A DNA stretch of 64,000 nt, taken from the NCBI RefSeq assembly GCF_024700885.2, contig NZ_CP117016.1; one strand, written 5' to 3'. The DNA is from Escherichia coli. Its GTDB lineage: Bacteria > Pseudomonadota > Gammaproteobacteria > Enterobacterales > Enterobacteriaceae. The notes beneath the pieces are model-generated. The model was not told the origin of the DNA. It did no database searches and saw only the letters and a list, made by a program, of their open reading frames with translations. Below are positions 1,837 through 35,286 of the stretch, piece by piece. The stretch's first letter is position 1; each line of letters opens with the position of its first letter. The translations under genes were made by a program, and so were the position numbers.

Positions 1837-1847
1837 AAACATAAAAT

Positions 1848-2104: not shown

Positions 2105-2680
2105 ATGGTACGAAAAATCTCTACATTTTTAAAGATAATAGGAGTTATAGGTTCTTTATGCGGGATTATTGCGACAGTATTCACAATCTATGCGTACTAC
2201 AACCCGACCTCCCCTTCTACTCAGAGATATGACAGTATTGTAGGAAGCTGGCTATCTGATTACTCTTACACCGTAAAAGGGAATACCGTTAGGGTTAATG
2301 GAAAAACGACCTTCTTCTCTAATGGAAAATACAACTTTCATGGCAGTATCTCTATTGACTCTAATGCTCCAGGTGACCATATATTAATAGATTATCTTTC
2401 TGATGGTGCTGGTGATTGGGAACTATATGATAATGAGTTAATTACATCATTAAATAGCCTAAAAACAAAACCTATGAAGCTGGCTTTAAATAACGAAGAT
2501 CTTGATCCACTGAAAATAGAGGTGATAAACAATAAAAAGTTACCAACTATTGAGGAGAATATGGCTGATGGGAAAAACCAATCCTATAAAATAATAAAAT
2601 CTTCAAAAAGCCAGTTAACATTGGAGGTTATTAACGAAATCGGAAGCAATTTCAACTTTACTATGCAAAAAACAAAATAG
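2105..2680 (+). CDS. Hypothetical membrane-anchored protein (single N-terminal TM helix), island cargo
   Basis: 191 aa ORF; hydrophobic N-terminus FLKIIGVIGSLCGIIATVFTIYAYY; AT-rich; convergent with the helicase gene and sharing a terminator with it. Confidence 0.45.
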   Translation: MVRKISTFLKIIGVIGSLCGIIATVFTIYAYYNPTSPSTQRYDSIVGSWLSDYSYTVKGNTVRVNGKTTFFSNGKYNFHGSISIDSNAPGDHILIDYLSDGAGDWELYDNELITSLNSLKTKPMKLALNNEDLDPLKIEVINNKKLPTIEENMADGKNQSYKIIKSSKSQLTLEVINEIGSNFNFTMQKTK

Positions 2681-2682
2681 AA

Positions 2683-2714
2683 ATGATGGCGATCTGAAAT
2701 CGCCATCATTTTTC
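2683..2714. terminator. Bidirectional rho-independent terminator between convergent genes
   Basis: Hairpin TGATGGCGAT-cugaa-ATCGCCATCA followed by TTTTT. Confidence 0.5.
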
Positions 2715-4560: not shown

Positions 4561-6548
4561 TAAAGTAATCCTCTTACTGTTTCGATAATTTCATTAAGAA
4601 CTTCAGGACTATCATCTCTTAACTTATCGTCTTCCATTTTTGATAGAACATAATTGTGCGATAATGGTTTACCTCTTCCTAAAAATAGGTAACGATACCA
4701 AAAATATTTTTCATAATCATCGAACTCACTAATATCAATATCTTTCTCTTCTTTTTTCAAAACTGCAGCAATTGCCGATTTAACTTTATTATCATATTCA
4801 TGATCGTCATCTTTTGGCAATCTTGGCCCACCATTTTTGGGAACAAATGTCTTATAATCCTCAAAGAATTTATTAAGCATTAGCCAATCTAAATCGTAGG
4901 GGTAAGAAAAATAAACATTATAATCTTTTAGACAATTAATCCATGCCGATTCATTATCTTGATCCTCATCCCATGTATGCATTTTTTCAAGCTCTTCATC
5001 ACTTAAAGTTCCTGAAGTAATACTTAACAATTCATTTTTATCTGCACCTATAGATATTAATTGTTTGACTGCATATTTAATTCTTCCCCAACCACCACCT
5101 CCTCCTCTCTTGAAATCATAGTCGAGAAGAGTCACATGTGGAATTGAAAGCTCATTGAGTAACTTCCAAAAATGATTAACATATCGCCCTCCTAATGGAG
5201 CAAATGTTATCAATGAAGTGTCAAGCTCTATACCATTTACTTGAGCTATTTTAGGTATTACTATTTCTTCGCTATCACCTTCACCAAGTATTACAACTTT
5301 TGCAAAATAAATTTCTGGATATGCCTTCACTGCTTCTTTTACATAAGTGAAAGTATCAACATTGTCTCCATCGTCTTCATCTTCGCTTGGTAATAATATT
5401 GGTTTGACAACAGTATTTTTATTATCATGTAGACGAAAATACCTTATATTTTCTGGTTCTACTCTATTGAGTAATGAAGGTGCGTGTGTTGTTAAAACAA
5501 CCTGTGCTCGATCATTCTCAGATATATCTTCACATAGTTTAACTATTCTTCCTAAATATTGGGGTGAAAGATGATTTTCTGGTTCTTCGATTAATATTAT
5601 CGTTAAATTTGGAGGATCTAATGCTTCTACTGATATTGATAATTCATTTTCTCCTGAATTAATGATCTCATCTTCAATATCAAATGCAGATTTGACTAAC
5701 GAAAGATAAAACAATGACTTCATACCATCACTCAATCTTTCAGTTGGTAATGGCTGAGTCACCGGAGTAGGCATAAATACAGTATCTATATGCTTTAATA
5801 CATCTTCTATTCCATTCATTACTGGCTGAATTTTAAGCTGTTCAAAATACCCTCCGCTAAAAAGAGTTTTCCAATTTCTGCCCAATGAAGATGTTATTGT
5901 CTGAACCCCAATTTCTTCTTGGAACTGGTTTCCGATTGATTCTGCAACCTCATCAACCGTTGAACTCATCTGTTCAGACCATTCAACTGCATTTATCAAA
6001 CGGTGCATGATGGTTCCGGCTGTTTGCTTCAGTTGTTGAGCAGGATCGCGATAAGCAGGGACATAATGAACATGGATTTTTGATCTTTCATATGCTGTAA
6101 TATTTTTTTCATATTCTCCTATTTCCCATACTAAATCACTATCTATATCCCCTTCTGCAAGATTAGTTTTTGTCCATTTAGCTTTTAATTTTGCTATACA
6201 GTATGGGATCTGGTCTGCTTCATTTGAGACCAAATGCTTAAAGAAATCAGCGACTGAATCGTCCTCACCATCTTGCAGATCTGCAAATTCAAATTTTACA
6301 CGAACTGATAATTCTCTTTCATCTTGAGTATCGATTTCATCTCCAGGAGGAACATAAAAATCATCAACTTGAACAATTCTATCGGAGCTTTTGACACCAA
6401 ACATCCTTGTCAATGCGAGGAGAACAGCCGTCTTACCTGTTCCATTCCCTCCAATTAAGCTGGTGAATGAATTTATATTTATAGTTTGCCCTACATTATC
6501 AAAGCTCTTAAAACCTTTGATCTCCATTTGTGTAATTTTCATTATCAC
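4560..6548 (-). CDS. OLD-family ABC-type ATPase with C-terminal TOPRIM nuclease domain (GajA-like)
   Basis: 662 aa ORF from a GTG; likelier ATG start at 6542 with GAGGTG Shine-Dalgarno. Walker A GGNGTGKT, ILIEEPENHLSP (Walker B/D-loop typical of OLD ATPases), VLTTHAP (H-loop), TOPRIM-like VVILGEGDSEEIV and LLDYDFKRGGGGGWG. Confidence 0.8.
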   Translation of the reverse strand: MIMKITQMEIKGFKSFDNVGQTININSFTSLIGGNGTGKTAVLLALTRMFGVKSSDRIVQVDDFYVPPGDEIDTQDERELSVRVKFEFADLQDGEDDSVADFFKHLVSNEADQIPYCIAKLKAKWTKTNLAEGDIDSDLVWEIGEYEKNITAYERSKIHVHYVPAYRDPAQQLKQTAGTIMHRLINAVEWSEQMSSTVDEVAESIGNQFQEEIGVQTITSSLGRNWKTLFSGGYFEQLKIQPVMNGIEDVLKHIDTVFMPTPVTQPLPTERLSDGMKSLFYLSLVKSAFDIEDEIINSGENELSISVEALDPPNLTIILIEEPENHLSPQYLGRIVKLCEDISENDRAQVVLTTHAPSLLNRVEPENIRYFRLHDNKNTVVKPILLPSEDEDDGDNVDTFTYVKEAVKAYPEIYFAKVVILGEGDSEEIVIPKIAQVNGIELDTSLITFAPLGGRYVNHFWKLLNELSIPHVTLLDYDFKRGGGGGWGRIKYAVKQLISIGADKNELLSITSGTLSDEELEKMHTWDEDQDNESAWINCLKDYNVYFSYPYDLDWLMLNKFFEDYKTFVPKNGGPRLPKDDDHEYDNKVKSAIAAVLKKEEKDIDISEFDDYEKYFWYRYLFLGRGKPLSHNYVLSKMEDDKLRDDSPEVLNEIIETVRGLL

Positions 6549-7195
6549 CTCAATTGCTGTTTTAAAAAATTATAATCACTAATTATTTCTGCGTTTGTAA
6601 TGATTTCTTGTGAGCACAGCTTAAAACATTCTAAAAATATATTTTTATTATCGTTATGTTCCCAATGTTTTTTCAAAGCTTCTTCAATTGAAATCCAAAT
6701 AACTTGAAAATCGTTATTAGATATTTGGCTTGTTAAAACTGTTTCTTCCACACAAAGTATATGCCCTAAGATGACATCATCGTATATGTCAGTATCTGAA
6801 TCTCTAACTCCTAACCTTTTTATTTTCCTTTTTTGGATGATTTTATTTTTAACAATAAAAGGATGTTCTTCTATAAAATCGGTCAATGATGTAAAAGCCA
6901 AGCCACGAACCTGAGCACCATGCATTGAACTATTTACTTTATGGATATCTCTCCAAACTCGCAGATCACCTAATACATAGAGAACCCGCTGATTTCTCGC
7001 TTTCGTATCTTCTGCTTGGTATTGGATATAAGGTGGCCCTCCCCCATTTTGTCTATATCGGGCAAGGGTTTTGATGCTTATGCCAAGAAAGACAGAAGCA
7101 AGCTCACTATTTACAGTGGCAGAATCAGGCATTTGACCAAATAGTTTCCATACCTCTGAATACTCCCGCAAAACTTCCACCACACTCATCTTCAC
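6545..7195 (-). CDS. HTH-domain protein (excisionase/MerR-like N-terminus plus uncharacterised ~130 aa C-terminal domain), first gene of the defense operon
   Basis: 216 aa ORF (GTG at 7195 or ATG at 7189). N-terminal ELASVFLGISIKTLARYRQNGGGPPYIQY resembles excisionase-type HTH. Starts within 2 nt of the integrase stop and ends 2 nt before the GajA-like start. Confidence 0.5.
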   Translation of the reverse strand: MKMSVVEVLREYSEVWKLFGQMPDSATVNSELASVFLGISIKTLARYRQNGGGPPYIQYQAEDTKARNQRVLYVLGDLRVWRDIHKVNSSMHGAQVRGLAFTSLTDFIEEHPFIVKNKIIQKRKIKRLGVRDSDTDIYDDVILGHILCVEETVLTSQISNNDFQVIWISIEEALKKHWEHNDNKNIFLECFKLCSQEIITNAEIISDYNFLKQQLR

Positions 7196-8655
7196 TCCCT
7201 CGTTTCAGGTAATGGAGGATACTTAGCCGAAGCAAGTAACACATTGTATAATTTAGGAGCAGTCATAAGCATATGCAACTCAATCCTTTGTAATGCTTCA
7301 AAAATCCGTTCTTGATCAGGTTCTGCATACCTTTCTGTTGGATCTGTTGTATTTCTGTGATTGAGCAGTCTCTTAACGACGGCATATGAAACAAGTTCTT
7401 CAGCAACCCTACCAAATGTCCTTCGTAGATCATGCATACCAAGCTTCAGGATTCCCGCCTCTTGGCAGATATATTCCCTTAGACTTTTACTATCGGAATA
7501 GTGACCAACTTTACTTCGAGAAGAACGGGCCGGGAAAACCCACTTCTGTTTGTCCTTCTGGGTTACCGTATCGTTTACTATGTCTCTTCTATCTTCCAAA
7601 ATTCTTTTGACAGCATCACAAATCGGAAGCTCGTGATCGTTTCGATTCTTAGTGTCGTAAAAACGGATAGTTCTGTTACTCAGGTCAACATAGCTTGTCG
7701 TTTTAGCTTCTTCCTTTGTAAGAGACTCTCGCCAACACAGAGAAGCTGTTTCTTCCTTACGAGCACCTAAGAGAACGGTAAGTAGCAGATAATCGCACCC
7801 AAGCCGGTTGAAGCTTCTCTTGTTGAACAATGCAGTCAAGAACCGACCAAGTGTATCCTTTGGTGATAAGGGGTTTCTGACACCTTTTGCCCGATAACTA
7901 TCCTCAAGCTCAGAACGTGTCCTAAACTTTTTCTGTACCTTTAAGATACTGAAAGGGTTGTAAGATAGAGAAGGTTGTCGTTGCTGGGTCTGAGCATTCC
8001 CAGCTTCAATCTCTATTGCGTGTTTTACAGCAACATTCGCCCACCTAAAGGTCTGTTCCGCTGCTGTTCTGGCTCTTGAAGCAATCTCATCAAACTTCCT
8101 AAGAATTTCATTACCAGTAAGATCTTTAACTCGCAAACCAGCCCACTCAGAAAGCCTGTTTTCTGCTTTATCTAATACAGCCAAGGTGTTGGGTTTAGCT
8201 GGTTTCGCTCTACCCAGCAGATGCTGGCGGTATTGTGCAAACACTTCACTGATAGTGAGTTCAGAAGCATCGGACTCCCGTTTTATTTTGTTAGGGTTCC
8301 TTTTGGTCAACTTCATGGTTTGAACTAAATTGCGAGCAACCTCGCGGGCTTGATCGATGTTAGCGAAATCAGAGACATTGCCAATTGTAGACCTGATAAC
8401 CTCAGATGGGGATTTTCCCCCTGTCTTAGGGCGATTGCCAGGAGAAGAGACTCGTCGCTGAACGATATAGGTCTTTTTCGTTGCACTGATTTTGACACCA
8501 AAACCAACGGGTGAATCCCGGTGATTATCAGTGATAAGATACGGTTTTCGCTCTGGATTGGGTAAGTAGACTACTCTGCCTTGCGGATCAAGGCTCGGTT
8601 TCACGTCGATAGATAACTTATTGATTATAATCGACTGATTGAGTGTCATTTTCAT
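7192..8655 (-). mobile_element. int: P4-type tyrosine integrase
   Basis: ORF track 7192..8763; trimmed to internal ATG (MKMTLNQ...) at 8653-8655. N-terminal arm-binding-like region (YLITDNHRDSPVGFGVKISATKKTYIVQRR), box I ARKEE, HDLRRTF, C-terminal ERY. Near-host GC, unlike the cargo. Confidence 0.8.
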
Positions 8656-8658
8656 CGA

Positions 8659-8717
8659 TGTATACCAGTGGTTCAAGTGTGTATACCAGATAGTAGCTAG
8701 AATACTTCTGGTATACA
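8659..8717. repeat. Three copies of TGTATACCAG (two direct, one inverted) at the integrase 5-prime end; candidate integrase-binding or att-associated sites
   Basis: Exact 10-mers at 8659-8668 and 8680-8689 (direct) and 8708-8717 (inverted), between the integrase start and mutS. Confidence 0.45.
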
Positions 8718-8787
8718 AATTTATGGGTTTATGTGAGTTTAAAGGGGTATCACTTGGGGCCACATAAGTACTCAGAAGACTTTAAAA

Positions 8788-11370
8788 ATGAGTAAAATCA
8801 ATATGAAAGAGTCTGCAAGCAAGGATCTATCAGACCACACTCCTATGATGCAGCAATATCTCAAGCTGAAAGCCCAGCATCCCGAGATCCTGCTGTTTTA
8901 CCGGATGGGTGATTTTTATGAACTGTTTTATGACGACGCAAAACGCGCGTCGCAACTGCTGGATATTTCACTGACCAAACGCGGTGCTTCGGCGGGAGAG
9001 CCGATCCCGATGGCGGGGATCCCCTACCATGCGGTGGAAAACTACCTCGCCAAACTGGTGAATCAGGGCGAGTCCGTTGCCATCTGCGAACAAATTGGCG
9101 ATCCGGCGACCAGCAAAGGTCCGGTTGAGCGCAAAGTTGTGCGTATCGTTACGCCAGGCACCATCAGCGATGAAGCCCTGTTGCAGGAGCGTCAGGACAA
9201 CCTGCTGGCGGCTATCTGGCAGGACAGCAAAGGTTTCGGCTACGCGACGCTGGATATCAGTTCCGGGCGTTTTCGCCTGAGCGAACCGGCTGACCGCGAA
9301 ACGATGGCGGCAGAGCTGCAACGCACTAATCCGGCAGAGCTGTTGTATGCAGAAAATTTCGCCGAGATGTCGCTGATTGAAGGTCGTCGCGGACTGCGCC
9401 GTCGCCCGCTATGGGAGTTTGAAATCGACACCGCGCGCCAGCAGTTGAATCTGCAATTTGGCACCCGCGATCTGGTCGGTTTTGGCGTCGAGAACGCGCC
9501 GCGCGGACTTTGTGCTGCCGGTTGTCTGTTGCAGTATGCGAAAGATACCCAACGTACGACTCTGCCGCATATTCGTTCCATCACCATGGAACGTGAGCAG
9601 GACAGCATCATTATGGATGCCGCGACGCGTCGTAATCTGGAAATCACCCAGAACCTGGCGGGTGGTGCGGAAAATACGCTGGCTTCTGTGCTCGACTGCA
9701 CCGTCACGCCGATGGGCAGCCGTATGCTGAAACGCTGGCTGCATATGCCAGTGCGCGATACCCGCGTCTTGCTTGAGCGCCAGCAAACTATTGGCGCATT
9801 GCAGGATTTCACCGCCGAGCTGCAGCCGGTACTGCGTCAGGTCGGCGACCTGGAACGTATTCTGGCGCGTCTGGCTTTACGAACTGCTCGCCCACGCGAT
9901 CTGGCCCGTATGCGTCACGCTTTCCAGCAACTGCCGGAGCTGCGTGCGCTATTAGAAAATGTCGATAGCGCTCCGGTACAGGCGCTGCGTGAAAAAATGG
10001 GCGAGTTTGCCGAGCTGCGCGATCTGCTGGAGCGAGCAATCATCGACACACCGCCAGTGCTGGTACGCGACGGTGGTGTTATCGCACCGGGCTATAACGA
10101 AGAGCTGGATGAGTGGCGCGCGCTGGCTGACGGCGCGACCGATTATCTGGAGCGTCTGGAAGTCCGCGAGCGTGAACGTACTGGCCTGGACACCCTGAAA
10201 GTCGGCTTTAACGCGGTTCATGGTTATTACATTCAGATCAGCCGTGGACAAAGCCATCTGGCACCCATCAATTACATGCGTCGCCAGACGCTGAAAAACG
10301 CCGAGCGCTACATTATTCCAGAGCTAAAAGAGTACGAAGACAAAGTTCTCACTTCAAAAGGCAAAGCACTGGCACTGGAAAAACAGCTTTATGAAGAGTT
10401 GTTCGACCTGCTGTTGCCGCATCTGGAAGCGTTGCAACAGAGCGCGAGCGCGCTGGCGGAACTCGACGTGCTGGTGAACCTGGCAGAACGGGCCTATACG
10501 CTGAACTACACCTGCCCGACCTTTATTGATAAACCGGGTATTCGCATCACCGAAGGCCGCCATCCGGTGGTTGAACAGGTGCTGAATGAGCCGTTTATCG
10601 CCAACCCGCTGAACCTGTCGCCGCAGCGTCGCATGTTGATCATTACCGGTCCGAATATGGGCGGTAAAAGTACCTATATGCGCCAGACCGCACTGATTGC
10701 GCTGATGGCCTACATCGGCAGCTATGTACCGGCACAAAAAGTCGAGATTGGACCTATCGATCGCATCTTTACCCGCGTAGGGGCAGCGGATGATCTGGCA
10801 TCCGGGCGTTCAACCTTTATGGTGGAAATGACCGAAACCGCCAATATTTTACATAACGCCACCGAGTACAGTCTGGTGCTGATGGATGAGATTGGGCGCG
10901 GGACGTCCACTTACGATGGTCTGTCGCTGGCGTGGGCGTGCGCGGAAAATCTGGCGAATAAGATTAAAGCGTTGACACTGTTTGCCACCCACTATTTCGA
11001 GCTGACCCAGTTACCGGAGAAAATGGAAGGCGTCGCCAACGTGCATCTCGATGCGCTGGAGCACGGCGACACCATTGCCTTTATGCACAGCGTGCAGGAT
11101 GGCGCGGCGAGCAAAAGCTACGGCCTGGCGGTTGCAGCTCTGGCAGGCGTGCCAAAAGAGGTTATTAAGCGCGCACGGCAAAAACTGCGTGAGCTGGAAA
11201 GCATTTCGCCGAACGCCGCCGCTACGCAAGTGGATGGTACGCAAATGTCTTTGCTGTCAGTGCCAGAAGAAACGTCGCCTGCGGTCGAGGCACTGGAAAA
11301 CCTCGACCCGGATTCACTGACTCCGCGTCAGGCGCTGGAGTGGATTTATCGCTTGAAGAGTCTGGTGTAA
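8788..11370 (+). CDS. mutS: DNA mismatch repair protein MutS, with a non-K-12 N-terminus
   Basis: 860 aa; near-identical to E. coli MutS from about residue 17 (HTPMMQQYL...). First ~16 residues ([16 protein letters not shown]) differ from the K-12 N-terminus (MSAIENFDA, from memory). Confidence 0.95.
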
Positions 11371-16817: not shown

Positions 16818-18182
16818 ATGTCCACAATTACATTGTTATGCATTGCGTTAACTGGCGTAATCATGCTGTTGCTGCTGGTCATCAAGGCAAAGGTACAACC
16901 ATTCGTTGCTCTGCTCCTCGTCAGCCTGTTAGTCGCACTTGCGGCGGGTATACCAGCGGGCGAAGTGGGTAAAGTGATGATCGCCGGGATGGGCGGTGTG
17001 CTTGGTTCCGTCACTATTATTATTGGTCTGGGCGCTATGCTGGGGCGTATGATCGAACACTCTGGTGGTGCAGAGTCACTGGCTAATTATTTCAGTCGCA
17101 AGTTAGGTGACAAACGAACTATCGCTGCGCTGACTCTGGCAGCGTTCTTCCTCGGTATTCCCGTCTTCTTTGATGTCGGCTTTATTATTCTTGCGCCAAT
17201 CATTTACGGTTTTGCCAAGGTTGCCAAAATATCGCCACTCAAATTTGGCCTGCCTGTCGCTGGAATCATGCTAACTGTTCATGTGGCGGTACCGCCGCAT
17301 CCAGGCCCTGTCGCCGCAGCGGGGTTACTCCACGCAGACATCGGCTGGCTAACCATCATCGGTATTGCGATTTCTATTCCAGCAGGGATTGTTGGCTACT
17401 TTGCAGCGAAAATAATCAATAAGCGCCAATATGCGATGTCGGTGGAAGTACTGGAACAGATGCAACTGGCTCCGGCCAGTGAGGAAGGCGCGACAAAATT
17501 AAGCGATAAAATAAATCCACCGGGCGTCGCGCTGGTCACCTCGCTAATTGTTATTCCTATCGCGATTATCATGGCGGGTACGGTTTCCGCAACACTGATG
17601 CCGCCTTCGCATCCCCTGCTTGGTACGCTACAGCTGATCGGCTCACCAATGGTAGCTCTAATGATTGCGCTGGTGCTGGCATTCTGGTTATTGGCTTTAC
17701 GTCGCGGCTGGAGCTTACAACACACCAGCGACATTATGGGCTCAGCCCTTCCCACTGCGGCGGTAGTGATTTTGGTTACTGGTGCTGGAGGGGTATTTGG
17801 CAAAGTGCTGGTGGAATCGGGCGTCGGCAAAGCCCTTGCCAACATGCTACAAATGATTGACCTGCCTCTGTTACCAGCCGCATTTATTATTTCACTGGCG
17901 CTGCGTGCATCGCAGGGGTCAGCAACCGTAGCAATCCTGACAACCGGCGGGTTACTCTCAGAAGCGGTGATGGGATTGAATCCGATTCAGTGCGTATTGG
18001 TGACGCTGGCAGCCTGCTTTGGTGGGCTTGGCGCGTCACATATTAATGACTCAGGGTTCTGGATTGTGACCAAATATCTGGGGTTGTCGGTAGCAGACGG
18101 TCTGAAAACCTGGACAGTGTTAACGACCATTCTCGGTTTTACCGGATTCTTAATTACCTGGTGCGTATGGGCGGTAATTTGA
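16818..18182 (+). CDS. ygbN: GntP-family permease
   Basis: 454 aa polytopic membrane protein; K-12 synteny. Confidence 0.85.
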   Translation: MSTITLLCIALTGVIMLLLLVIKAKVQPFVALLLVSLLVALAAGIPAGEVGKVMIAGMGGVLGSVTIIIGLGAMLGRMIEHSGGAESLANYFSRKLGDKRTIAALTLAAFFLGIPVFFDVGFIILAPIIYGFAKVAKISPLKFGLPVAGIMLTVHVAVPPHPGPVAAAGLLHADIGWLTIIGIAISIPAGIVGYFAAKIINKRQYAMSVEVLEQMQLAPASEEGATKLSDKINPPGVALVTSLIVIPIAIIMAGTVSATLMPPSHPLLGTLQLIGSPMVALMIALVLAFWLLALRRGWSLQHTSDIMGSALPTAAVVILVTGAGGVFGKVLVESGVGKALANMLQMIDLPLLPAAFIISLALRASQGSATVAILTTGGLLSEAVMGLNPIQCVLVTLAACFGGLGASHINDSGFWIVTKYLGLSVADGLKTWTVLTTILGFTGFLITWCVWAVI

Positions 18183-18190
18183 CCTTAATA

Positions 18191-18220
18191 AAAAGGTCCG
18201 ATGGGCATCGGACCTTTTAT
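18191..18220. terminator. Bidirectional rho-independent terminator between ygbN and the decarboxylase operon
   Basis: AGGTCCGATG-gg-CATCGGACCT hairpin with A-tract before and T-tract after. Confidence 0.5.
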
Positions 18221-18457
18221 TTAGCGCTTACCTTCCGCCAGCAGCGGCGGGATGCTCGGCACCATCGGCGCGTCATCAATATCTTTCTGCGTCATGCGGA
18301 ACGCTTCGGGATAATGTTCGCGGCTGGTGCGGCGTAGCGGTTCGGTATCGCGCCAGGTATAGAGGCAATGCTGGCACTGATAGATCGTCCAGACATCTTT
18401 TACCGGCGATTTCGCCATCACTTCAATCTGTTCATCAGCACAACGTGGACAAATCAT
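18221..18457 (-). CDS. Small zinc-ribbon subunit of hydroxyarylic acid decarboxylase (BsdD/EcdD-like)
   Basis: 78 aa with CPRC...CQHC cysteine pairs; directly downstream of the UbiD-family gene. Confidence 0.7.
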   Translation of the reverse strand: MICPRCADEQIEVMAKSPVKDVWTIYQCQHCLYTWRDTEPLRRTSREHYPEAFRMTQKDIDDAPMVPSIPPLLAEGKR

Positions 18458-18467
18458 CTTGTTCTCC

Positions 18468-19895
18468 TTATTTACGTGCGGCCAGCATAGCGGTCAGTTT
18501 TTCAGCCCAGGCTTTGGTTTCCGGTAAATCCACCACCGGCTGGCTGTAGTGACCACGGTTGTCCGGGGCGACAGGCGTGGTGGCGTCGATAATCAGCTTG
18601 TCGGTGATACCGGCCGGGCTTGAGCCGGGGTCGAGTTCCAGCACGGACATATTCGGCAACTGCACCAAATCCCCTGCCGGGTTCACTTTCGAAGAGAGCG
18701 CCCACATCACCTGCGGCAGGTTGAACGGATCAACGTCTTCATCGACCATAATCACCATCTTCACGTAGCCCAGACCGTGTGGCGTGGTCATCGCACGCAG
18801 GCCCACCGCGCGGGCAAAGCCACCGTAGCGTTTTTTGGTGGAGATAATCGCCAGCAGGCCGTGGGTGTACATGGCGTTCACCGCCTGCACTTCCGGGAAC
18901 TCGGCTTTCAGTTGCTGATACAGCGGCACGCAGGTGGCTGGCCCCATCAGGTAGTCGATTTCTGTCCACGGCATGCCGAGGTACAGCGATTCGAAAATCG
19001 GCCTGGTGCGGTAAGAGACTTTATCGATACGCACCACGGTCATGTTACGCCCGCCGGAGTAGTGCCCGGTAAACTCACCGAACGGCCCTTCGATTTCGCG
19101 TTTACGGCTTTCGATGACCCCTTCGAGGATCACCTCCGAGCCCCACGGCACATCAAAACCGGTCAATGGCGCGGTGGCGATCGGATACGGGCTTTCGCGC
19201 AGCGCGCCTGCCATTTCATACTCAGACTGATCGTATTTCAGCGGCGTGGCCCCCATCAGGGTGATGATCGGATCGTTACCGAGCGTGATTGCAATCGGCA
19301 GATCTTCACCGCGCTCTTCTGCTTTATGCAGATGCAGGGCGATATCGTGCATCGGCACCGGTTGCAGGCCGAGCTTACGCTTGCCCTTCACTTCCATGCG
19401 GTAGATGCCGACGTTCTGCTTGCCGAAGTTATCCGGATCAAGCGGATCGCGGGAAACCACGCACGCTTTGTCGAGATAGAAACCGCCATCGCCATCGTTT
19501 AAACGAAACAGCGGCAGGATATCGAACAGGTTGATCTCGTCGCCATCGACGGTGTTCTGCGCCCAGGCTGGATTGGCGCGGCGCTCCGGGGCAATCGGGA
19601 AGTTATCCCAGCGGCGGATAAACTCATCAATCTGCTTTTTGACCGGGGTGTTTGGCGGCAGGCCGAGGGAAATCGCGTGGTTCTGCCAGGAACCGATGGT
19701 ATTCATCGCCACACGGGCATCGGTAAAGCCGCGAATATTATCAAACCACAGCGCGGGCGCGCCGTCGCCGATACGCCCGGTGGCGTTAGCTGCTGCTGCC
19801 AGATCCGGTTCCGCGTTCACCTCTTCGCTGATTTTCAGTAACTGTCCGTGGTCATCAAGCGCCTGTAAAAAGCTGCGTAAATCATCAAATGCCAT
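18468..19895 (-). CDS. UbiD-family (prenyl-FMN-dependent) aromatic acid decarboxylase subunit
   Basis: 475 aa; UbiD-like throughout; overlaps upstream UbiX-like gene by 1 nt. Confidence 0.85.
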   Translation of the reverse strand: MAFDDLRSFLQALDDHGQLLKISEEVNAEPDLAAAANATGRIGDGAPALWFDNIRGFTDARVAMNTIGSWQNHAISLGLPPNTPVKKQIDEFIRRWDNFPIAPERRANPAWAQNTVDGDEINLFDILPLFRLNDGDGGFYLDKACVVSRDPLDPDNFGKQNVGIYRMEVKGKRKLGLQPVPMHDIALHLHKAEERGEDLPIAITLGNDPIITLMGATPLKYDQSEYEMAGALRESPYPIATAPLTGFDVPWGSEVILEGVIESRKREIEGPFGEFTGHYSGGRNMTVVRIDKVSYRTRPIFESLYLGMPWTEIDYLMGPATCVPLYQQLKAEFPEVQAVNAMYTHGLLAIISTKKRYGGFARAVGLRAMTTPHGLGYVKMVIMVDEDVDPFNLPQVMWALSSKVNPAGDLVQLPNMSVLELDPGSSPAGITDKLIIDATTPVAPDNRGHYSQPVVDLPETKAWAEKLTAMLAARK

Positions 19896-20488
19896 TATTC
19901 ATTCTCCTGAGAAAAATTCCGGACCTGCGGCAATCCTTGCCAGCGCCTGGCGTGGGGATGTTCGAGGCCAAATTGATCCAGCACGCGGGCTACCACGTGG
20001 TGGACAATGTCATCTACCGTTTCGGGATGGTTATAAAAGGCAGGCATCGGCGGCACCATCGCCACGCCCATGCGTGAAAGTGCGAGCATATTTTCGAGAT
20101 GGATGGTGCTAAGCGGCATTTCACGCGGCACCAGCACTAGTTTGCGGCCTTCTTTGAGCACGACGTCCGCCGCGCGCCCTACCAGGCCATCGGCGTAACC
20201 GGCACGGATACCGGCGAGCGTTTTCATACTGCACGGAATAACGATCATGCCGTCGGTACGAAAGGAACCTGAGGAGATGGTCGCCGCCTGATCCGCCGGG
20301 TTATGACTGAAGTCTGCGAGGGCAGCAACATCGCGAGCGCTGTAAGGCGTTTCCAGTTCAATGGTGGTTTTCGCCCACTTCGACATCACCAGATGAGTCT
20401 CGACATTCGGCATCTCCCGCAGCGCTTGCAGTAATGCCACCCCAAGAGGCGCACCGGTAGCCCCTGTCATCCCGACGATCAGTCTCAT
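19895..20488 (-). CDS. UbiX/Pad1-family flavin prenyltransferase
   Basis: 197 aa, N-terminal MRLIVGMTGATGAPLG flavoprotein motif. Confidence 0.85.
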   Translation of the reverse strand: MRLIVGMTGATGAPLGVALLQALREMPNVETHLVMSKWAKTTIELETPYSARDVAALADFSHNPADQAATISSGSFRTDGMIVIPCSMKTLAGIRAGYADGLVGRAADVVLKEGRKLVLVPREMPLSTIHLENMLALSRMGVAMVPPMPAFYNHPETVDDIVHHVVARVLDQFGLEHPHARRWQGLPQVRNFSQENE

Positions 20489-20601
20489 TGTTTATTCTCT
20501 TAATTGTTCGTATACGAACGTTATTATTAAAATACGCCTCTGTTTTCATCGCGGCAAGCACTGAAAAGTAACAACATCTTCTTCGTCACTGAAAAACCGC
20601 T

Positions 20602-21042
20602 ATGATAGCCACAGATAGTTTGCCCGGAGTTTACATGGCGTTACGAAATAAAGCGTTCCATCAGTTACGACAGCTTTTTCAGCAGCACACGGCTCGCTGG
20701 CAGCACGAGTTACCTGACCTCACCAAACCACAGTACGCGGTGATGCGCGCCATTGCTGATAAGCCTGGTATCGAACAGGTGGCACTGATGGAAGCAGCAG
20801 TCAGCACCAAAGCAACGCTGGCAGAAATGCTGGCAAGAATGGAAAATCGTGGCTTAGTCAGACGAGAACATGACACCGCTGATAAGCGGCGACGCTTTGT
20901 CTGGCTGACTGCCGAAGGAGAAAAGGTACTTGCTGCGGCGATACCGATTGGTGACAGCGTGGATGAGGAATTTTTGGGGCGTTTGAGTGCAGAAGAGCAG
21001 GAGCTGTTTATGCAGCTGGTGCGCAAGATGATGAACGCATAG
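20602..21042 (+). CDS. MarR/SlyA-family transcriptional regulator
   Basis: 146 aa winged-helix; divergent from the decarboxylase operon. Confidence 0.8.
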   Translation: MIATDSLPGVYMALRNKAFHQLRQLFQQHTARWQHELPDLTKPQYAVMRAIADKPGIEQVALMEAAVSTKATLAEMLARMENRGLVRREHDTADKRRRFVWLTAEGEKVLAAAIPIGDSVDEEFLGRLSAEEQELFMQLVRKMMNA

Positions 21043-21114
21043 GGGGCAAATTTCCGGATGCGACGCTATCGCGTCTTATCCAGACTACAAATACACCGAC
21101 TCACCAACCGAAAG

Positions 21115-21146
21115 AAAAAAGGCCAGCCTCGCTTGAGACTGGCCTT
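21115..21146. terminator. rpoS terminator hairpin (shared with convergent MarR gene)
   Basis: GGCCAG...CTGGCC stem with flanking A/T tracts immediately downstream of the rpoS stop. Confidence 0.5.
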
Positions 21147-21162
21147 TCTGACAGATGCTTAC

Positions 21163-22155
21163 TTACTCGCGGAACAGCGCTTCGATATTCAGCCCCTGCG
21201 TTTGCAGGATTTCGCGCAAACGGCGCAGGCCTTCAACCTGAATCTGGCGAACACGTTCACGGGTGAGGCCAATTTCACGACCTACATCTTCCAGTGTTGC
21301 CGCTTCGTACCCCAGCAAACCGAATCGACGTGCCAGTACTTCACGCTGTTTGGCGTTCAGCTCGAACAGCCATTTGACGATGCTCTGCTTCATATCGTCA
21401 TCTTGCGTGGTATCTTCCGGACCGTTCTCTTTTTCATCGGCCAGGATGTCCAGCAACGCTTTTTCGGAATCACCACCTAGCGGGGTGTCTACCGAGGTAA
21501 TGCGCTCGTTAAGACGAAGCATACGGCTGACGTCATCAACTGGCTTATCCAGTTGCTCTGCGATCTCTTCCGCACTTGGTTCGTGGTCCAGTTTATGGGA
21601 CAACTCGCGTGCGGTTCGCAGGTAAACGTTCAGCTCCTTTACGATGTGAATCGGCAAACGAATAGTACGGGTTTGGTTCATAATCGCCCGTTCGATCGTC
21701 TGGCGAATCCACCAGGTTGCGTATGTTGAGAAGCGGAAACCACGTTCCGGGTCAAACTTCTCTACCGCGCGGATCAGCCCCAGGTTGCCCTCTTCGATCA
21801 GGTCCAGCAACGCCAGACCACGATTGCCATAACGGCGGGCAATTTTTACCACCAGACGCAAGTTACTCTCGATCATCCGGCGGCGGGAGGCAACATCTCC
21901 ACGCAGTGCGCGACGCGCAAAATAAACTTCTTCTTCGGCCGTTAACAGTGGTGAATAACCAATCTCACCAAGGTAAAGCTGAGTCGCGTCCAACACACGC
22001 TGTGTGGCTCCCTGCGATAACAGTTCCTCTTCGGCCAAATCGTTATCACTGGGTTCCTCTTCTACTAAGGCCTTTTCGTCAAAAACCTCAACTCCGTTCT
22101 CATCAAATTCCGCATCTTCATTTAAATCATGAACTTTCAGCGTATTCTGACTCAT
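21163..22155 (-). CDS. rpoS: RNA polymerase sigma factor RpoS (sigma-38)
   Basis: ORF track gives 342 aa; trimmed to [11 protein letters not shown]... (330 aa) matching RpoS. Confidence 0.95.
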
Positions 22156-22217
22156 AAGGTGGCTCCTACCCGTGATCCCTTGACGGAACATTCAAGCAAA
22201 AGCCTGGTTCCGCCGAT

Positions 22218-23357
22218 TTATCGCTGCGGCAAATAACGCAGCGGGTTTACGGATTTCCCCTTGTAACGAATTTCAAAATGCAAGCGTGTTGAACTGGTTC
22301 CGGTGCTACCCATGGTTGCTATTTTTTGCCCCGCCTTCACTTCTTGTTGTTCCCGGACCAGCATTGTGTCGTTATGGGCGTAGGCACTCAGGTAATCATC
22401 ATTATGTTTGATGATAATCAGATTACCGTAGCCGCGCAGCGCGTTACCGGCATAAACAACGCGGCCATCTGCGGTCGCGATAATTGCCTGTCCTTTGCTG
22501 CCTGCGATATCAATCCCCTTGTTGCCCCCCTCAGAAGCGCCAAAGGTTTCGATCACTTTGCCCTCAGTCGGCCAGCGCCAGGTGGAGATAGGCGTACTGG
22601 TTGATGTACTGCTGACAGTCGGCTCGGTTGTGCTTGCTGTTGGCACCGTTACAGGCGCTGTGACCGTGGTCGCAGTTGGCTTGTTGTTCGGCAACATTTT
22701 GTTAGCACTCTGTTCACCCGAAGACTCAGAATACGTAATTGTCGGTTGCGACGCAACAGCAACGGTGGAATTTTGTGCAGGCTTGATCACAACTCCTTGC
22801 TCTGCTGCGTCGGCCTGGGTAATGGCATTTCCGCCAGTGATTGGCGTACCGGAAGCATTACCCACCTGCAAGGTCTGACCAACGTTCAGCGCGTATGGTG
22901 CCTGAATATTGTTGCGCTGAGCAAGGTCACGGAAATCGTTGCCAGTAATCCAGGCGATATAGAAAAGTGTGTCGCCTTTTTTCACGGTATAGGTACTGCC
23001 GCTATAACTGCCTTTCGGAATGTTCCCATACTGACGGTTATAGACGATGCGTCCGTTTTCCATCTGTACCGGCTGCTGAGCTACTGGCTGCACCGGCTGG
23101 ATTTGCGGTTGTTGAGTGGCCTGAATTTGTGGCTGCTGTACCGGCTGAATTTGCGGTTGCTGAGCTGTAGACGTCGTTCCCATTTTCGGCGGCGGCGTAA
23201 TCAACATACCAGAATTGGTATTTGCAGGCGCATTGCCATTAACGGAGCTGACCGGTGCCGGTGGATTTGAAGTGTCAGAACAGCCTGCCAGCCATAGCGA
23301 AACCAGTGACAAAGCCGCAATGCGGCGAACGGTGAATTTTGGGCTTCCCGCGCTCAT
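22218..23357 (-). CDS. nlpD: Murein hydrolase activator lipoprotein NlpD (LysM plus M23 domains)
   Basis: 379 aa; lipobox LAGC; internal QPQIQ repeats; upstream of rpoS as in K-12. Confidence 0.9.
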
Positions 23358-31184: not shown

Positions 31185-32222
31185 ATGTTTTCCGCATTGC
31201 GCCACCGTACCGCTGCCCTGGCGCTCGGCGTATGCTTTATTCTCCCCGTACACGCCTCGTCACCTAAACCTGGCGATTTTGCTAATACCCAGGCACGACA
31301 TATTGCTACTTTCTTTCCGGGACGCATGACCGGAACTCCTGCAGAAATGTTATCTGCCGATTATATTCGCCAACAGTTTCAGCAAATGGGTTATCGCAGT
31401 GATATTCGGACATTTAATAGTCGGTATATTTATACCGCCCGCGATAATCGCAAGAGCTGGCATAACGTGACGGGAAGTACGGTGATTGCCGCTCATGAAG
31501 GCAAAGCGCCGCAGCAGATCATCATTATGGCGCATCTGGATACTTACGCCCCGCTGAGCGATGCTGACGCCGATGCCAATCTCGGCGGGCTGACGTTACA
31601 AGGAATGGATGATAATGCCGCAGGTTTAGGTGTCATGCTGGAACTGGCAGAACGCCTGAAAAATACGCCTACCGAGTATGGTATTCGATTTGTGGCGACC
31701 AGTGGTGAAGAGGAAGGGAAATTAGGTGCTGAGAATTTACTCAAGCGGATGAGTGACACCGAAAAGAAAAATACGCTGCTGGTGATTAATCTCGATAACT
31801 TAATTGTTGGCGATAAATTGTATTTCAACAGTGGTGTAAAAACCCCTGAAGCAGTAAGGAAATTAACGCGCGACAGGGCACTGGCAATTGCGCGTAGTCA
31901 TGGAATTGCCGCAACGACCAATCCGGGTTTGAATAAAAATTATCCGAAGGGTACTGGCTGTTGTAATGACGCCGAAGTTTTCGACAAAGCCGGTATTGCC
32001 GTACTTTCGGTAGAAGCAACAAATTGGAATCTTGGGAATAAGGATGGTTATCAGCAACGCGCAAAAACAGCAGCATTCCCTGCGGGAAATAGCTGGCATG
32101 ACGTAAGACTGGATAATCAACAACATATTGATAAGGCACTTCCAGGAAGAATAGAACGTCGCTGCCGTGATGTTATGCGGATAATGCTACCGCTGGTGAA
32201 GGAGCTGGCGAAGGCGTCTTGA
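31185..32222 (+). CDS. iap: Alkaline phosphatase isozyme conversion aminopeptidase
   Basis: 345 aa with signal peptide; divergent from cysD as in K-12. Confidence 0.85.
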   Translation: MFSALRHRTAALALGVCFILPVHASSPKPGDFANTQARHIATFFPGRMTGTPAEMLSADYIRQQFQQMGYRSDIRTFNSRYIYTARDNRKSWHNVTGSTVIAAHEGKAPQQIIIMAHLDTYAPLSDADADANLGGLTLQGMDDNAAGLGVMLELAERLKNTPTEYGIRFVATSGEEEGKLGAENLLKRMSDTEKKNTLLVINLDNLIVGDKLYFNSGVKTPEAVRKLTRDRALAIARSHGIAATTNPGLNKNYPKGTGCCNDAEVFDKAGIAVLSVEATNWNLGNKDGYQQRAKTAAFPAGNSWHDVRLDNQQHIDKALPGRIERRCRDVMRIMLPLVKELAKAS

Positions 32223-32348
32223 TGGGTTTGAAATGATTACTCCCTTGCCTGCAGGAAATCAATGCCACCAGAAACAGAGTATAAAAAAGGGGTGCAGGAG
32301 GCCAAACTTTAACAATTCAATACGCGGGGTTTTACCCCCGCGTGGTGG

Positions 32349-32501
32349 CTACTTCTTCGATTCGTAAGCGAGAACTGCCTTAAACTCCATACCACGTTCT
32401 CTGATACTCAACTCACACAACGAGTCGCCTACCATCAGCGTGAATCCCAGTACTGTACAACACAGTACGATGATTGCCACAAGGGCATATTTTGTCAGCA
32501 T
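32349..32501 (-). CDS. Hok/Gef-family type I toxin (small membrane peptide), apparently intact
   Basis: 50 aa [53 protein letters not shown] with the SLCE...AYES signature of Hok/Gef toxins; GGAGG Shine-Dalgarno 6 nt upstream. Not in the ORF track (under 60 aa). Confidence 0.6.
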
Positions 32502-32765
32502 GTCTTGCCTCCCTGCAAAGAAGAGACTAACATTCGAATTGCTTAGGTTCGAACGCTGGCCTCAGGTTGATAGAAATATCGCCTGGGGCTTTTGTCCATC
32601 TGGAACCTCGCGAATGCTTAACGCCAGACAGCCTCAAGCACCCAACTCCATTCTATACCTGTTAATTCTCCCTGCGATGTTCACCTTTAAATGCCGGAAT
32701 GCTGCTCGCAAAATAAAAACGCCCCCATCATTTCTGACAGAGGCGTTTAATTTATCCGGCAATAT

Positions 32766-33500
32766 TTACCCTTCGTGTAACCCACATTCCCTTTTTAAGC
32801 CAAAGAAACGCGTTTCTTCTTCCGCCATGCCGGGTTCCCATTTACGGGTTGTATGGGTATCGCCCACCGATAAATATCCTTCGTCCCATAATGGGTGATA
32901 TTTCAGGCCATGTTTTTGCAGGTACTGATAAATAGTTCGGTTATCCCAGTCGATAATCGGCAGCACTTTAAATACGCCACGCTGAATTGCCAGCACCGGT
33001 AAATTGGCGCGGCTGCCGGATTGTTCACGGCGCAGGCCAGCAAACCAGGTTTGCGCGTTAAGTTCTTTCAGCGCCCGGTTCATCGGTTCGACTTTGTTGA
33101 TGTCATTGTACTTTTCAATGCCTTCAACGCCCTGCTCCCACAGTTTGCCGTAGCGCGCTTCCTGCCAGGCGGCGCTTTCGGTAGCGCGGTACACTTTCAG
33201 GTTGAGCTTGAGTTTGTCCGTTAACTCGTCAATAAAGCGGTAGGTTTCCGGGAACAGATAACCCGTATCGGTCAGGATCACCGGGATATCCGGGTGAATC
33301 TGATTCACCAGATGCAGGCTCACCGCCGCCTGAATGCCGAAACTGGAAGAAAGTACATATTCACCGGGCAGATTATCCAGCGCCCAGGCAACGCGGCCTT
33401 CAGCATCCAGTTTTTCCAGTTCGGCGTTAGTTTCTGCCAGCGCCAGAATGCGATCTACCTTCGGCAGTTCGTTCAGGGCGTTTAGATCGAGTTTGGACAT
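32766..33500 (-). CDS. cysH: Phosphoadenosine phosphosulfate reductase
   Basis: ORF trimmed to [12 protein letters not shown]... (244 aa); the track extension reads through a REP element. Confidence 0.9.
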
Positions 33501-33521
33501 AGATTCCTCACTGTTTGCCTT

Positions 33522-33557
33522 GCCTGATGCGACGCTCACGCGTCTTATCAGGCCTAC
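33522..33557. repeat. REP (repetitive extragenic palindromic) element between cysI and cysH
   Basis: GCCTGATGCGACGCTCACGCGTCTTATCAGGCCTAC, the typical E. coli REP consensus shape. Confidence 0.5.
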
Positions 33558-33573
33558 AAGACCGGGCTGATGG

Positions 33574-35286
33574 TTAATCCCACAAATCGCGCGCCGGATC
33601 GAGCACCGGGCGAATGATGCCCGCACGCACCGTAAAGTCGCCGAAGCCTTCACCCGCTTCGCGCTCTTTCGCCCAGCGCCCTATCAGTTCATCAAGCGAC
33701 GCCAGGATTTCCGGCTCGGTGATGTTTTCTTTATACATCCGTGGGATACGTGTCCCAATGCGGTTGCCGCCAAGATGCAGGTTGTAGCGACCCGGCGCTT
33801 TCCCCACCAGACCCACTTCCGCCAGCATCGCGCGACCACAACCGTTCGGGCAGCCTGTTACACGCATCACGATATGCTCATCGCTGACACCATGTTTCGC
33901 CATTAAATTATCGATGTTGTCGATAAAAGACGGCAGGAAACGCTCCGCTTCCGCCATCGCCAGCGGGCAAGTCGGGAATGACACGCAGGCCATTGAGTTT
34001 TCACGTTGCGGCGTGACGGCATTCATTAACCCGCTTTCTTTGGCGATCTTATCGATCTTCGCTTTCTCGCTTTCCGGCACTCCGGCGATGATCAGATTCT
34101 GGTTCGCCGTAATGCGGAAATCACCTTTGTGGATCTTCGCGATCTCCAGCAGGCCGGTTTTCAGCGGACGCCCAGGATAATCAAGGATACGACCATTTTC
34201 GATAAACAGCGTCAGATGCCAGTTATCATCAATGCCCTTAACCCAGCCAATACGATCGCCGCGTCCGGTGAACTCATACGGGCGGATCGGTTCAAATTTG
34301 ATCCCCGCGCGACGTTCAACTTCCGCTTTAAACGTCTCAACCCCTACGCGCTCCAGCGTGTATTTGGTTTTGGCATTTTTACGATCGGTTCGGTTACCCC
34401 AGTCGCGCTGAGTCGTCACGACGGCTTCTGCCACCGCCAGCGTATGCTCCAGCGGCAGATAACCAAACTCACTCGCCGTGCGGGCATAGGTTTTCTTGTT
34501 GCCGTGCTCGATGGAAAGCCCACCGCCCACCAGCAGGTTAAAGCCCACCAGCTTGCCGTTTTCGGCGATCGCCACGAAGTTCATGTCGTTGGCGTGCAGA
34601 TCGATATCGTTCTGCGGCGGGATCACTACCGTGGTTTTGAACTTACGCGGCAGGTAGGTCTGACCAAGGATCGGCTCTTCATCAGTAGTGGCGACTTTTT
34701 CCTGATCGAGCCAGATCTCCGCATACGCGCGGGTACGTGGCAGCAGATGTTCAGAGATTTTCTTCGCCCATTCATATGCTTCCGCGTGCAACTGCGACTC
34801 GTAAGGGTTCGAAGTGCACAGCACGTTACGGTTCATATCGTTGGCGGTCGCCAGCGCATCAAGACCGACCGAGTGCAGCATCTGGTGCACCGGTTTGACG
34901 TTCTTTTTCAGAATGCCGTGGAACTGGAACGTCTGGCGGTTGGTCAGGCGAATGCTGCCATAGATGGTGTTTTCACCGGCAAATTTATCGATCGCCTGCC
35001 ACTGTTTGGTGGTAATCACCCCACCCGGCAGACGACAGCGCAACAGCATTGCATGACGTGGCTCCAGCTTCTGTTCAGCACGTTCGGCGCGGATGTCGCG
35101 GTCATCCTGCTGATACATGCCGTGGAAGCGGATCAGCAGGAAGTTATCGCCCTTAAAGCCGCCGGTCAGACCGTCGTTTAAATCTTCCGCAATGGTGCCG
35201 CGCAGGTAGTTGCTTTCAAGCTTCATGCGCTCGGCGTCTGTCAGTTTTCCTTCGACCACTAAAGGCCCTGGATGTTTTTCGCTCAT
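33574..35286 (-). CDS. cysI: Sulfite reductase hemoprotein beta subunit
   Basis: 570 aa; K-12 synteny. Confidence 0.9.

Follow-up and report, generated by a model that had tools for sequence, protein, structure and literature searches.

Gene content and boundaries of the ygbN-rpoS segment

The window (the whole stretch of Escherichia coli DNA that was analysed) is 64,000 nucleotides in length. The cassette described here is flanked by ygbN on the left (16818-18182, plus strand) and rpoS on the right (21163-22155, minus strand). Three of its four ORFs lie on the minus strand. The subunit D gene (18221-18457) encodes a 78-aa zinc ribbon, the subunit C gene (18468-19895) a 475-aa UbiD-type decarboxylase, and the subunit B gene (19895-20488) a 197-aa UbiX-type flavin prenyltransferase. 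The fourth, hosA (20635-21042, plus strand), is divergent and encodes a 135-aa protein of the MarR family. An earlier sequence-only reading had proposed a three-gene decarboxylase operon with a divergent MarR gene, and this arrangement is confirmed in place. Pfam domains are UbiD_N, UbiD, and UbiD_C in C, Flavoprotein in B, and MarR in the regulator. With these matches and those to NCBIfam, the four are not chance ORFs. Antisense ORFs exist within C (for example, 18777-19502, 241 aa) and are treated as by-products of high GC. Across papers, the cassette is called hadBCD, ecdBCD, kpdBCD, or pad1-yclC.

Junction mapping against K-12 places the variable segment at 18222-21116, a length of 2,895 bp that agrees with the 2.9 kb given in the literature (PMC5491219). 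The left boundary (18221/18222) falls within the stop codon of D, and the right boundary is at 21116/21117. The K-12 counterpart of the segment is 8 bp, GTGCACAG. The entire ygbN-rpoS interval of K-12 MG1655 is a 93-bp spacer with zero genes, as the sequence-only reading held. The polymorphism of this mutS-rpoS site, also mentioned there, is indeed known (PMC4209514, PMC5491219).

Hairpin structures are found at both ends. The left hairpin (18190-18221, no strand assigned) is flanked by A/T runs, AAAAAGGTCCGATGGGCATCGGACCTTTTATT, and direct sequence comparison finds it in K-12 as well. The ygbN and D genes converge on it from either side, and it is probably a bidirectional terminator. On the right, a terminator scan identifies the rpoS intrinsic-terminator hairpin (21116-21149, minus strand), common to K-12 and Nissle. 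Between hosA and this terminator is a palindromic element, CCGGATGCGACGCTATCGCGTCTTATCCAGACTAC (21054-21088, no strand assigned), which is REP-like by comparison with the REP consensus. Its score against the REP-derived Rfam family naRNA4 is 33.7 bits, below the gathering score of 59.5. This weak match was the only one in an Rfam scan of 18000-22400 at a permissive E-value, in which nothing reached its gathering score.

The decarboxylase subunits and the HosA regulator

The B (UbiX-like), C (UbiD-like), and D (small subunit) genes are adjacent and co-oriented, in that order. All three products pass the curated NCBIfam cut-offs for VdcB (312.8 bits, cut-off 290), VdcC (790.5 bits, cut-off 650), and VdcD (120.5 bits, 1.9e-35, cut-off 30), respectively. 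The TAA stop of B and the ATG start of C share one base (TAATG), and the 10-nucleotide gap between C and D holds an AGGAG sequence located 7 nucleotides 5’ of the D ATG. Because of the stop/start overlap and the Shine-Dalgarno sequence, BCD is read as a co-translated operon.

Subunit B differs by three residues from PDB 1SBZ (E. coli O157:H7 Pad1; E 1.3e-128) and matches the UbiX-family prenyltransferases (TIGR00421) with 246 bits. Subunit C aligns with VdcC/ShdC (PDB 7AE4 chain A) over residues 3-471 at 2e-160. It retains the Glu-Arg-Glu catalytic triad of UbiD as R166 in the motif NVGIYR and E269 and E274 in EGPFGE, the latter two aligned to ShVdcC E273 and E278. The triad assignments other than E274 follow those of Fdc1. 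The triad role of E278 in ShVdcC is described in PMC8379154. Subunit D matches ShdD (PDB 7AE4 chain a) at 4.3e-11 and contains two CxxC knuckles (MICPRC...QCQHC). The four cysteines (Cys3, Cys6, Cys28, and Cys31) occupy positions identical to those of C3, C6, C28, and C31, which bind zinc in ShVdcD (PMC8379154). C is under purifying selection, with dN/dS of 0.013-0.036, and the cassette is intact. By analogy with these homologs, B would make prFMN, C would be the prFMN-dependent catalytic subunit, and D would act as a zinc-ribbon activator of C.

The regulator differs at two positions from PDB 8AGA (Transcriptional regulator HosA; 133/135 identical, 134 aligned residues) and fails the SlyA equivalog (28.4 bits, cut-off 120). 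The earlier description of a MarR/SlyA-type regulator is correct as to the MarR family and not as to SlyA itself. Judged by sequence, the regulator is HosA and is SlyA-like at the MarR-family level only. Its start is most likely at 20635, and not at the ATG at 20602 that had been chosen, because a GGAG sequence is present at 20626-20629, PGAP uses this start in identical genomes, and the resulting length is that of the crystallised HosA.

An inverted-repeat search of the divergent intergenic region identified a perfect 14-bp palindrome, GTTCGTATACGAAC (20506-20519, no strand assigned), 18-31 nucleotides 5’ of the B start. The published HosA binding-site oligonucleotides hold this palindrome with the same flanks (supplement of PMC6261655). 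A consensus promoter scan of 18100-21300, with the divergent intergenic region included, returned no sigma-70 site over threshold. By eye, the B strand shows a possible weak site (TTGCCG-17-TATTTT) upstream of the operator.

Repression of the operon by HosA and its release by 4-hydroxybenzoate (4-HBA) are attributed to Roy and Ranjan (2016) in the preprint bioRxiv 10.1101/2024.04.24.590444. HosA binds 4-HBA with a KD of 4.74 uM (PMC6261655), and its response in vivo is 38-fold and specific (PMC13355054). A link between HosA and EPEC motility is also on record (Ferrandiz 2005, as cited in PMC5491219 and bioRxiv 10.1101/2024.04.24.590444), so the regulon may extend beyond the cassette.

Another identity weighed for the enzyme was that of an AroY/LpdC-type decarboxylase acting on protocatechuate or gallate, in place of a 4-hydroxybenzoate/vanillate enzyme. 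Such an enzyme belongs to the same UbiD superfamily, VdcCD substrate ranges are broad (PMC8379154), and Enterobacter EcdB/EcdD are mentioned in PMC5779730 as boosting AroY activity in muconate engineering. However, C matches 5O3M and 5NY5 at only 1e-25 to 1e-27, far from its score against VdcC/ShdC, and NCBIfam puts it in VdcC. The highly specific in vivo inducer of HosA, 4-HBA, also points away from AroY/LpdC (PMC6261655, PMC13355054). On the PDB scores, an AroY-type enzyme is unlikely, with a slim chance of being correct. The BagM/FevK-BagN/FevL (bagremycin/ferroverdin) and BagL set was likewise tried and failed, with B at 343.1 of 420 bits, C at 115.5 of 1000, and the regulator at 89.3 of 230.

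Distribution and origin of the cassette

The two comparisons proposed in the sequence-only reading, with O157:H7 and with B2 strains, were carried out. O55:H7, the closest O157:H7-type genome among the matches listed, has this cassette too, with 95.9% identity. There it is directly after pphB, and ygbI-N are deleted. EPEC O127:H6 carries the cassette at 97.6% identity. The B2 strain Nissle has a different allele at the site, composed of an MBL-fold hydrolase and a flavodoxin.

The cassette is present in 2,380 of the 5,426 complete E. coli genomes (~44%), and the alternative B2-type allele in 1,040. At least 80% of the entire 14.6-kb mutS-nlpD arrangement is shared by 1,632. Carriers include canine, chicken, lake-water, and seawater isolates. 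MLI114 and strain 1190 match this strain at 100% over the whole cassette. Given its frequency and its animal and water sources, the cassette is not a pathogen marker. The window contains ygbI-ygbN with the decarboxylase/hosA segment between ygbN and rpoS, which is the EPEC type of long mutS-rpoS haplotype, defined as “pattern IV” by Ewers 2014 (PMC4209514). It is this haplotype, and not pathogenicity, that the cassette marks. The typing of the strain excludes the K-12-like empty, Nissle-like B2, and O55:H7-type (ygbI-N-deleted) forms.

Outside E. coli, rpoS is beside the cassette in 51 of the 72 other species with enough flank. Among these 72 informative loci, the nlpD-rpoS-hosA-BCD order is direct in 37 species, interrupted by an insert of ~2.6 kb in nine, and inverted in five. 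In comparisons with Citrobacter, Salmonella, and Klebsiella, C has a dS of 0.8-0.9, equal to or above that of rpoS. An excess of dS relative to Escherichia sp. E1V33 suggests recombination within the species. Because of the synteny with rpoS and a dS that matches it, the cassette is ancestral in the Enterobacteriaceae and not an insertion, and the K-12 state is a deletion. Both lines independently back the view that the cassette is ancestral and repeatedly lost.

These same data bear on a recent horizontal origin, for example from Shigella, in which the segment would be a “pathogenicity islet” with a SlyA-like virulence regulator as its main product and a marker of pathogenic lineages. The segment has a GC content of 55.8% against ~52% in the flanks, the GC3 of C is 0.70, and historically the cassette was described in EPEC and EHEC (PMC4209514, PMC5491219). 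The preprint cited above claims transfer from Shigella (bioRxiv 10.1101/2024.04.24.590444), and an effect of HosA on EPEC motility is cited in that preprint and PMC5491219. The synteny and dS contradict the transfer claim, and the GC3 is equally high in other genera. No integrase, att repeats, or IS were found at the segment junctions, both of which lie between two terminators. A mobile-island origin is rejected on the junctions, conserved synteny, and high dS, and with the commensal, animal, and water sources of the carriers, the islet is largely refuted and very improbable.

The cassette is tightly linked to the rpoS 3’ end throughout the family, and this might reflect function and not history, although that is a long shot. 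Convergent hosA transcription through the REP-like element and the shared terminator could alter 3’-end formation of the rpoS mRNA or the RpoS level. If so, the three alleles (cassette, B2-type, and empty) would add to the known strain variation in RpoS activity.

Proposed function and comparison with known systems

The segment is read, with a probability of about 90%, as an ancestral HosA-regulated non-oxidative hydroxyarylic acid decarboxylase cassette with the following mechanism. HosA would bind the palindrome just 5’ of B and repress both the operon and its own gene, and 4-hydroxybenzoate would bind HosA and release it from the DNA. B would prenylate FMN to prFMN, and D would keep C active. 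C with prFMN would reversibly convert 4-hydroxybenzoate to phenol and probably vanillate to guaiacol. K-12-like lineages would have lost the cassette by deletion, and in the B2 strain Nissle and the 1,040 genomes similar to it another allele would have taken its place. Gene identities, intactness, operator, junctions, population frequency, synteny, and purifying selection come from the present analysis, while repression, ligand, D role, and substrates come from literature on near-identical or homologous proteins.

Phenol is formed from 4-HBA by lysate of E. coli that expresses kpdBCD of K. pneumoniae (Lupa 2005, cited in PMC6424909). The C subunits of the sampled Klebsiella species are 96-97% identical to C here. 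We infer the same enzyme activity in this strain. By analogy, the cassette is likely to decarboxylate 4-hydroxybenzoate or vanillate reversibly with the help of prFMN, under induction by 4-hydroxybenzoate. No enzymatic assay of the E. coli cassette itself was found in the literature, so the range of substrates is an extrapolation. Because enzymes of the VdcCD type are sensitive to oxygen (PMC8379154), activity in aerobic E. coli is uncertain. Like ~44% of sequenced E. coli, the strain is predicted to be able to make phenol from dietary or paraben-derived 4-hydroxybenzoate in the gut.

That B and C are spare UbiX/UbiD paralogues for ubiquinone biosynthesis is extremely improbable, since, although the folds are identical in kind and B, as a true UbiX-family prenyltransferase, could feed prFMN to UbiD, C fails the UbiD equivalog (NF008175; 173.7 bits, cut-off 788), K-12 does without the cassette altogether, and a dedicated D subunit with a 4-HBA-sensing repressor suits a catabolic or detoxifying role on a soluble substrate.

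The segment, regulator, operator, ligand, and enzyme family have all been published, and the NCBI pipeline already names every gene of the cassette. Among the closest known systems is the 2.9-kb mutS-rpoS segment of E. coli O157:H7/EPEC (slyA/hosA, pad1, yclC; ecdBCD/kpdBCD), credited to Herbelin 2000 in PMC5491219 and PMC4209514. It has the same genes, order, ygbN-rpoS position, and size with no substantive difference, except that O55:H7 also has the ygbI-N deletion (“pattern I”) and the window keeps the long form. HosA of E. coli UMN026 / E2348/69 (PDB 8AGA; Roy and Ranjan 2016) has an identical 14-bp operator with identical flanks, and the regulator here carries the substitutions I52M and A80T. 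VdcCD/ShdCD of Sedimentibacter hydroxybenzoicus (PDB 7AE4; PMC8379154) has the same C-D pair, catalytic motifs, and zinc-ribbon cysteines, and C aligns over its full length. D here is 10 residues longer, the host is a facultative anaerobe, and the E. coli activity is predicted. UbiX/UbiD of the E. coli ubiquinone pathway share their prFMN chemistry and folds with B and C, but are of another subfamily, have no D subunit, and act on a polyprenylated substrate, and C is far under the UbiD equivalog cut-off.

Genes of the decarboxylase cassette

The phenolic-acid decarboxylase cassette lies between ygbN (16818-18182) and rpoS (21163-22155), with nlpD beyond rpoS. Three ORFs on the minus strand encode the UbiX-type subunit B (19895-20488, 197 aa), the UbiD-type subunit C (18468-19895, 475 aa), and the zinc-ribbon subunit D (18221-18457, 78 aa). 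B matches Pfam Flavoprotein and NCBIfam VdcB at 312.8 bits (cut-off 290), C matches Pfam UbiD_N/UbiD/UbiD_C and VdcC at 790.5 bits (cut-off 650), and D matches VdcD at 120.5 bits (cut-off 30). VdcB, VdcC, and VdcD are jointly named in NCBIfam as subunits B, C, and D of the non-oxidative hydroxyarylic acid decarboxylases. The divergent hosA gene (20635-21042, plus strand) encodes a 135 aa Pfam MarR protein. All four ORFs were located by the ORF listing exactly where the sequence-only reading had placed them, and its identification of a UbiX/UbiD/small-subunit decarboxylase with a MarR regulator is supported by Pfam, the NCBIfam cut-offs, and PDB matches.

The TAA stop of B overlaps the ATG start of C in TAATG, and the 10-nucleotide gap between C and D contains AGGAG, an arrangement that makes B, C, and D a single translationally coupled operon. 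The hosA start is most likely at position 20635. It is preceded by GGAG at 20626-20629, is the start placed by PGAP in identical genomes, and yields a product of the same length as the crystallised protein (PDB 8AGA). These observations disfavour the start first assigned to the regulator, an in-frame ATG upstream at 20602.

The cassette is already known and is annotated routinely. This copy is ordinary: its genes are all full length, its operator is intact, and its sequence is identical to that in many other genomes. Nothing unusual was found in the cassette copy of the window. The earlier observation as a whole is confirmed, and its interpretation holds with minor corrections.

The variable segment and its surroundings in E. 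coli

In alignment, the 39 bp after ygbN (18183-18221), containing a hairpin, and the 46 bp before rpoS (21117-21162), containing the rpoS terminator, are identical to K-12 MG1655. Between them, MG1655 has GTGCACAG in place of 2,895 bp (18222-21116), and the cassette genes are missing from K-12 as had been claimed. This interval corresponds to what the literature calls the ‘2.9 kb’ segment (PMC5491219), and Ewers et al. (PMC4209514) class ygbN with kpdDCB and slyA/hosA as ‘pattern IV’.

Alleles were counted over 5,426 complete E. coli genomes. The decarboxylase/hosA cassette is present in 2,380 (44%) at coverage ≥80%, and the alternative B2-type allele, of the Nissle 1917 type with an MBL-fold hydrolase and a flavodoxin, in 1,040. 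By difference, about 2,000 have neither allele at ≥80% coverage; this unsorted remainder includes K-12-like empty spacers. The whole long mutS-nlpD arrangement is present in 1,632. In the O157:H7-type comparison, O55:H7 carries the cassette directly 3’ of pphB, with ygbI-N deleted; in the B2 comparison, Nissle 1917 carries the different allele.

Strain MLI114 (human stool, Mali) matches the 14.6-kb mutS-nlpD region at 100% identity. At least 23 further genomes, including O166:H15, have it in essentially identical form; they come from dog, chicken, human, lake water, and seawater. Because isolates of such varied origin share it, the allele carries lineage information and does not indicate pathogenicity; of the proposal that the site marks strain background in pathogenic lineages, only the lineage part stands.

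A REP-like palindromic element lies at 21054-21088, within the variable segment close to its rpoS-proximal end, and a similar sequence occupies the same place in the Nissle allele (L003:7890-7930). This common position hints that the cassette and B2-type alleles share an old right-hand end. The rpoS ORF is full length (330 aa). Its protein in nucleotide-identical genomes is WP_000081550.1, common to Nissle 1917 and O55:H7, unlike the WP_000081588.1 of the MG1655 record.

The most interesting feature near the cassette, though outside the original finding, is an integrative element inserted in the 5’ end of mutS. It occupies window positions 1-8845 and extends past the window start (see L084:1-12060); identity to island-free strains resumes at approximately 8835-8845. 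The element rebuilds the MutS N-terminus, from MSAIENFDAHTPMM (the MSAIENFDA start) to a start of M(SKINM). It contains two tyrosine recombinases (216-1547 and 7192-8763), tRNA-Asp (1681-1757), tRNA-Val (1762-1836), Gabija GajB (2713-4560, 659 bits) and GajA (4560-6548, 798 bits), and a 216 aa ORF with no family match (6545-7195). MLI114 has two further tyrosine recombinases upstream in the element. A related integrase module is present in 107 of the 5,426 genomes, adjoins mutS in 11 of 12 among the matches listed, and in some copies is accompanied by other cargo such as ToxN/AbiQ.

Farther along, iap (31185-32222) and cysH (ORF 32766-33653) are approximately 540 bp apart (32223-32765). In K-12 the type I-E CRISPR-Cas locus lies between these two genes; given the short gap, that locus appears to be absent between iap and cysH of the window. 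MLI114 has a Hok/Gef family gene in the gap.

Descent of the cassette

A species scan with C as the query, one genome per species, gave 80 loci with C 89-100% identical, 72 of them with enough flank for arrangement to be scored. In 37, nlpD-rpoS directly adjoins hosA-BCD as in the window (Citrobacter, Kluyvera, Klebsiella, Enterobacter, Kosakonia, Atlantibacter, Franconibacter, Mangrovibacter, and others). An insert of ~2.6 kb separates rpoS and hosA in nine, from Klebsiella (oxytoca group), Enterobacter, Leclercia, and Lelliottia (loci L015, L018, L019, L028, L032, L034, L042, L044, and L060). The whole cassette is inverted, with rpoS 300 bp after D, in five from Salmonella and Phytobacter (L017, L020, L022, L046, and L048). 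The other 21, mostly Rahnella, Pantoea, Erwinia, and other non-Enterobacteriaceae, have no rpoS nearby.

Against Citrobacter, Salmonella, and Klebsiella, C has a Nei-Gojobori dS of 0.82-0.93 and a dN/dS of 0.013-0.036, and the adjacent rpoS has a dS of 0.44-1.06. All genera have high GC3. Together with the synteny, these values indicate that the cassette descended vertically from an ancestor of the Enterobacteriaceae, was strongly constrained, and was deleted in K-12-like lineages. Herbelin’s ‘conservation and loss’, as cited in PMC5491219, is in line with this. The same results contradict the statement that the cassette was ‘transferred from Shigella’ (preprint bioRxiv 10.1101/2024.04.24.590444).

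The amino-acid identity of C to Citrobacter, Salmonella, Klebsiella, and Enterobacter is 96-98%, nearly the conservation of RpoS, although more than half of E. coli genomes lack the cassette. HosA shows much lower conservation (70-81%). Against Escherichia sp. E1V33 (L005; window 18221-23357), the cassette genes have a dS of 0.29-0.51 and the adjacent rpoS and nlpD 0.12. This 2.5-4-fold greater synonymous divergence within Escherichia suggests older coalescence or recombination of the segment. In twelve loci, B is missing and hosA is directly 5’ of C-D (L040, L052, L053, L062, L064, L067, L072, L073, L075, L078, L082, and L083); these clusters presumably use the housekeeping UbiX for prFMN.

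Regulation and likeness to characterised proteins

A perfect 14-bp palindrome, GTTCGTATACGAAC, is located at 20506-20519, 18-31 nucleotides 5’ of the B start codon. It occurs with identical flanks in oligonucleotides with which the binding of HosA to its E. coli UMN026 site was studied (PMC6261655, supplement). As cited in bioRxiv 10.1101/2024.04.24.590444, Roy & Ranjan 2016 reported that HosA acts as a repressor of the decarboxylase operon and of its own gene, that its site lies 3’ of the transcription start, and that it is released by 4-hydroxybenzoate (4-HBA). The KD of HosA for 4-HBA is 4.74 µM (PMC6261655), and O157:H7 HosA gives a specific in vivo response of up to 38-fold (PMC13355054).

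On entering the cell, 4-HBA takes HosA off the operator, which would allow BCD expression. B would supply prFMN, and C with D would carry out reversible decarboxylation of 4-HBA to phenol and, probably, of vanillate to guaiacol. For this strain, we infer the steps from BCD expression onward from the Sedimentibacter and Bacillus enzymes and from kpdBCD of K. pneumoniae. The latter, expressed in E. coli, gave 4-HBA-to-phenol activity (Lupa 2005, cited in PMC6424909), and C of the sampled Klebsiella species is 96-97% identical to C of the window.

HosA of the window has 2 residue differences relative to PDB 8AGA (‘Transcriptional regulator HosA’), and B has 3 over its 197 residues relative to 1SBZ, a Pad1/UbiX-like protein of E. 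coli O157:H7. D resembles ShdD and has Cys3, Cys6, Cys28, and Cys31, which in ShVdcD are described as the four zinc-binding residues; ShVdcD is a zinc-ribbon subunit strictly required for C activation (PMC8379154). C contains NVGIYR with R166 and EGPFGE with E269 and E274; the latter motif aligns to E273/E278 of ShVdcC, in which E278 is the catalytic glutamate (PMC8379154). Over residues 3-471, C aligns at 2e-160 to the VdcC/ShdC chain in the structure of the VdcCD complex from Sedimentibacter hydroxybenzoicus (7AE4), whereas its matches to AroY and Fdc1 structures are far weaker (about 1e-23 to 1e-28).
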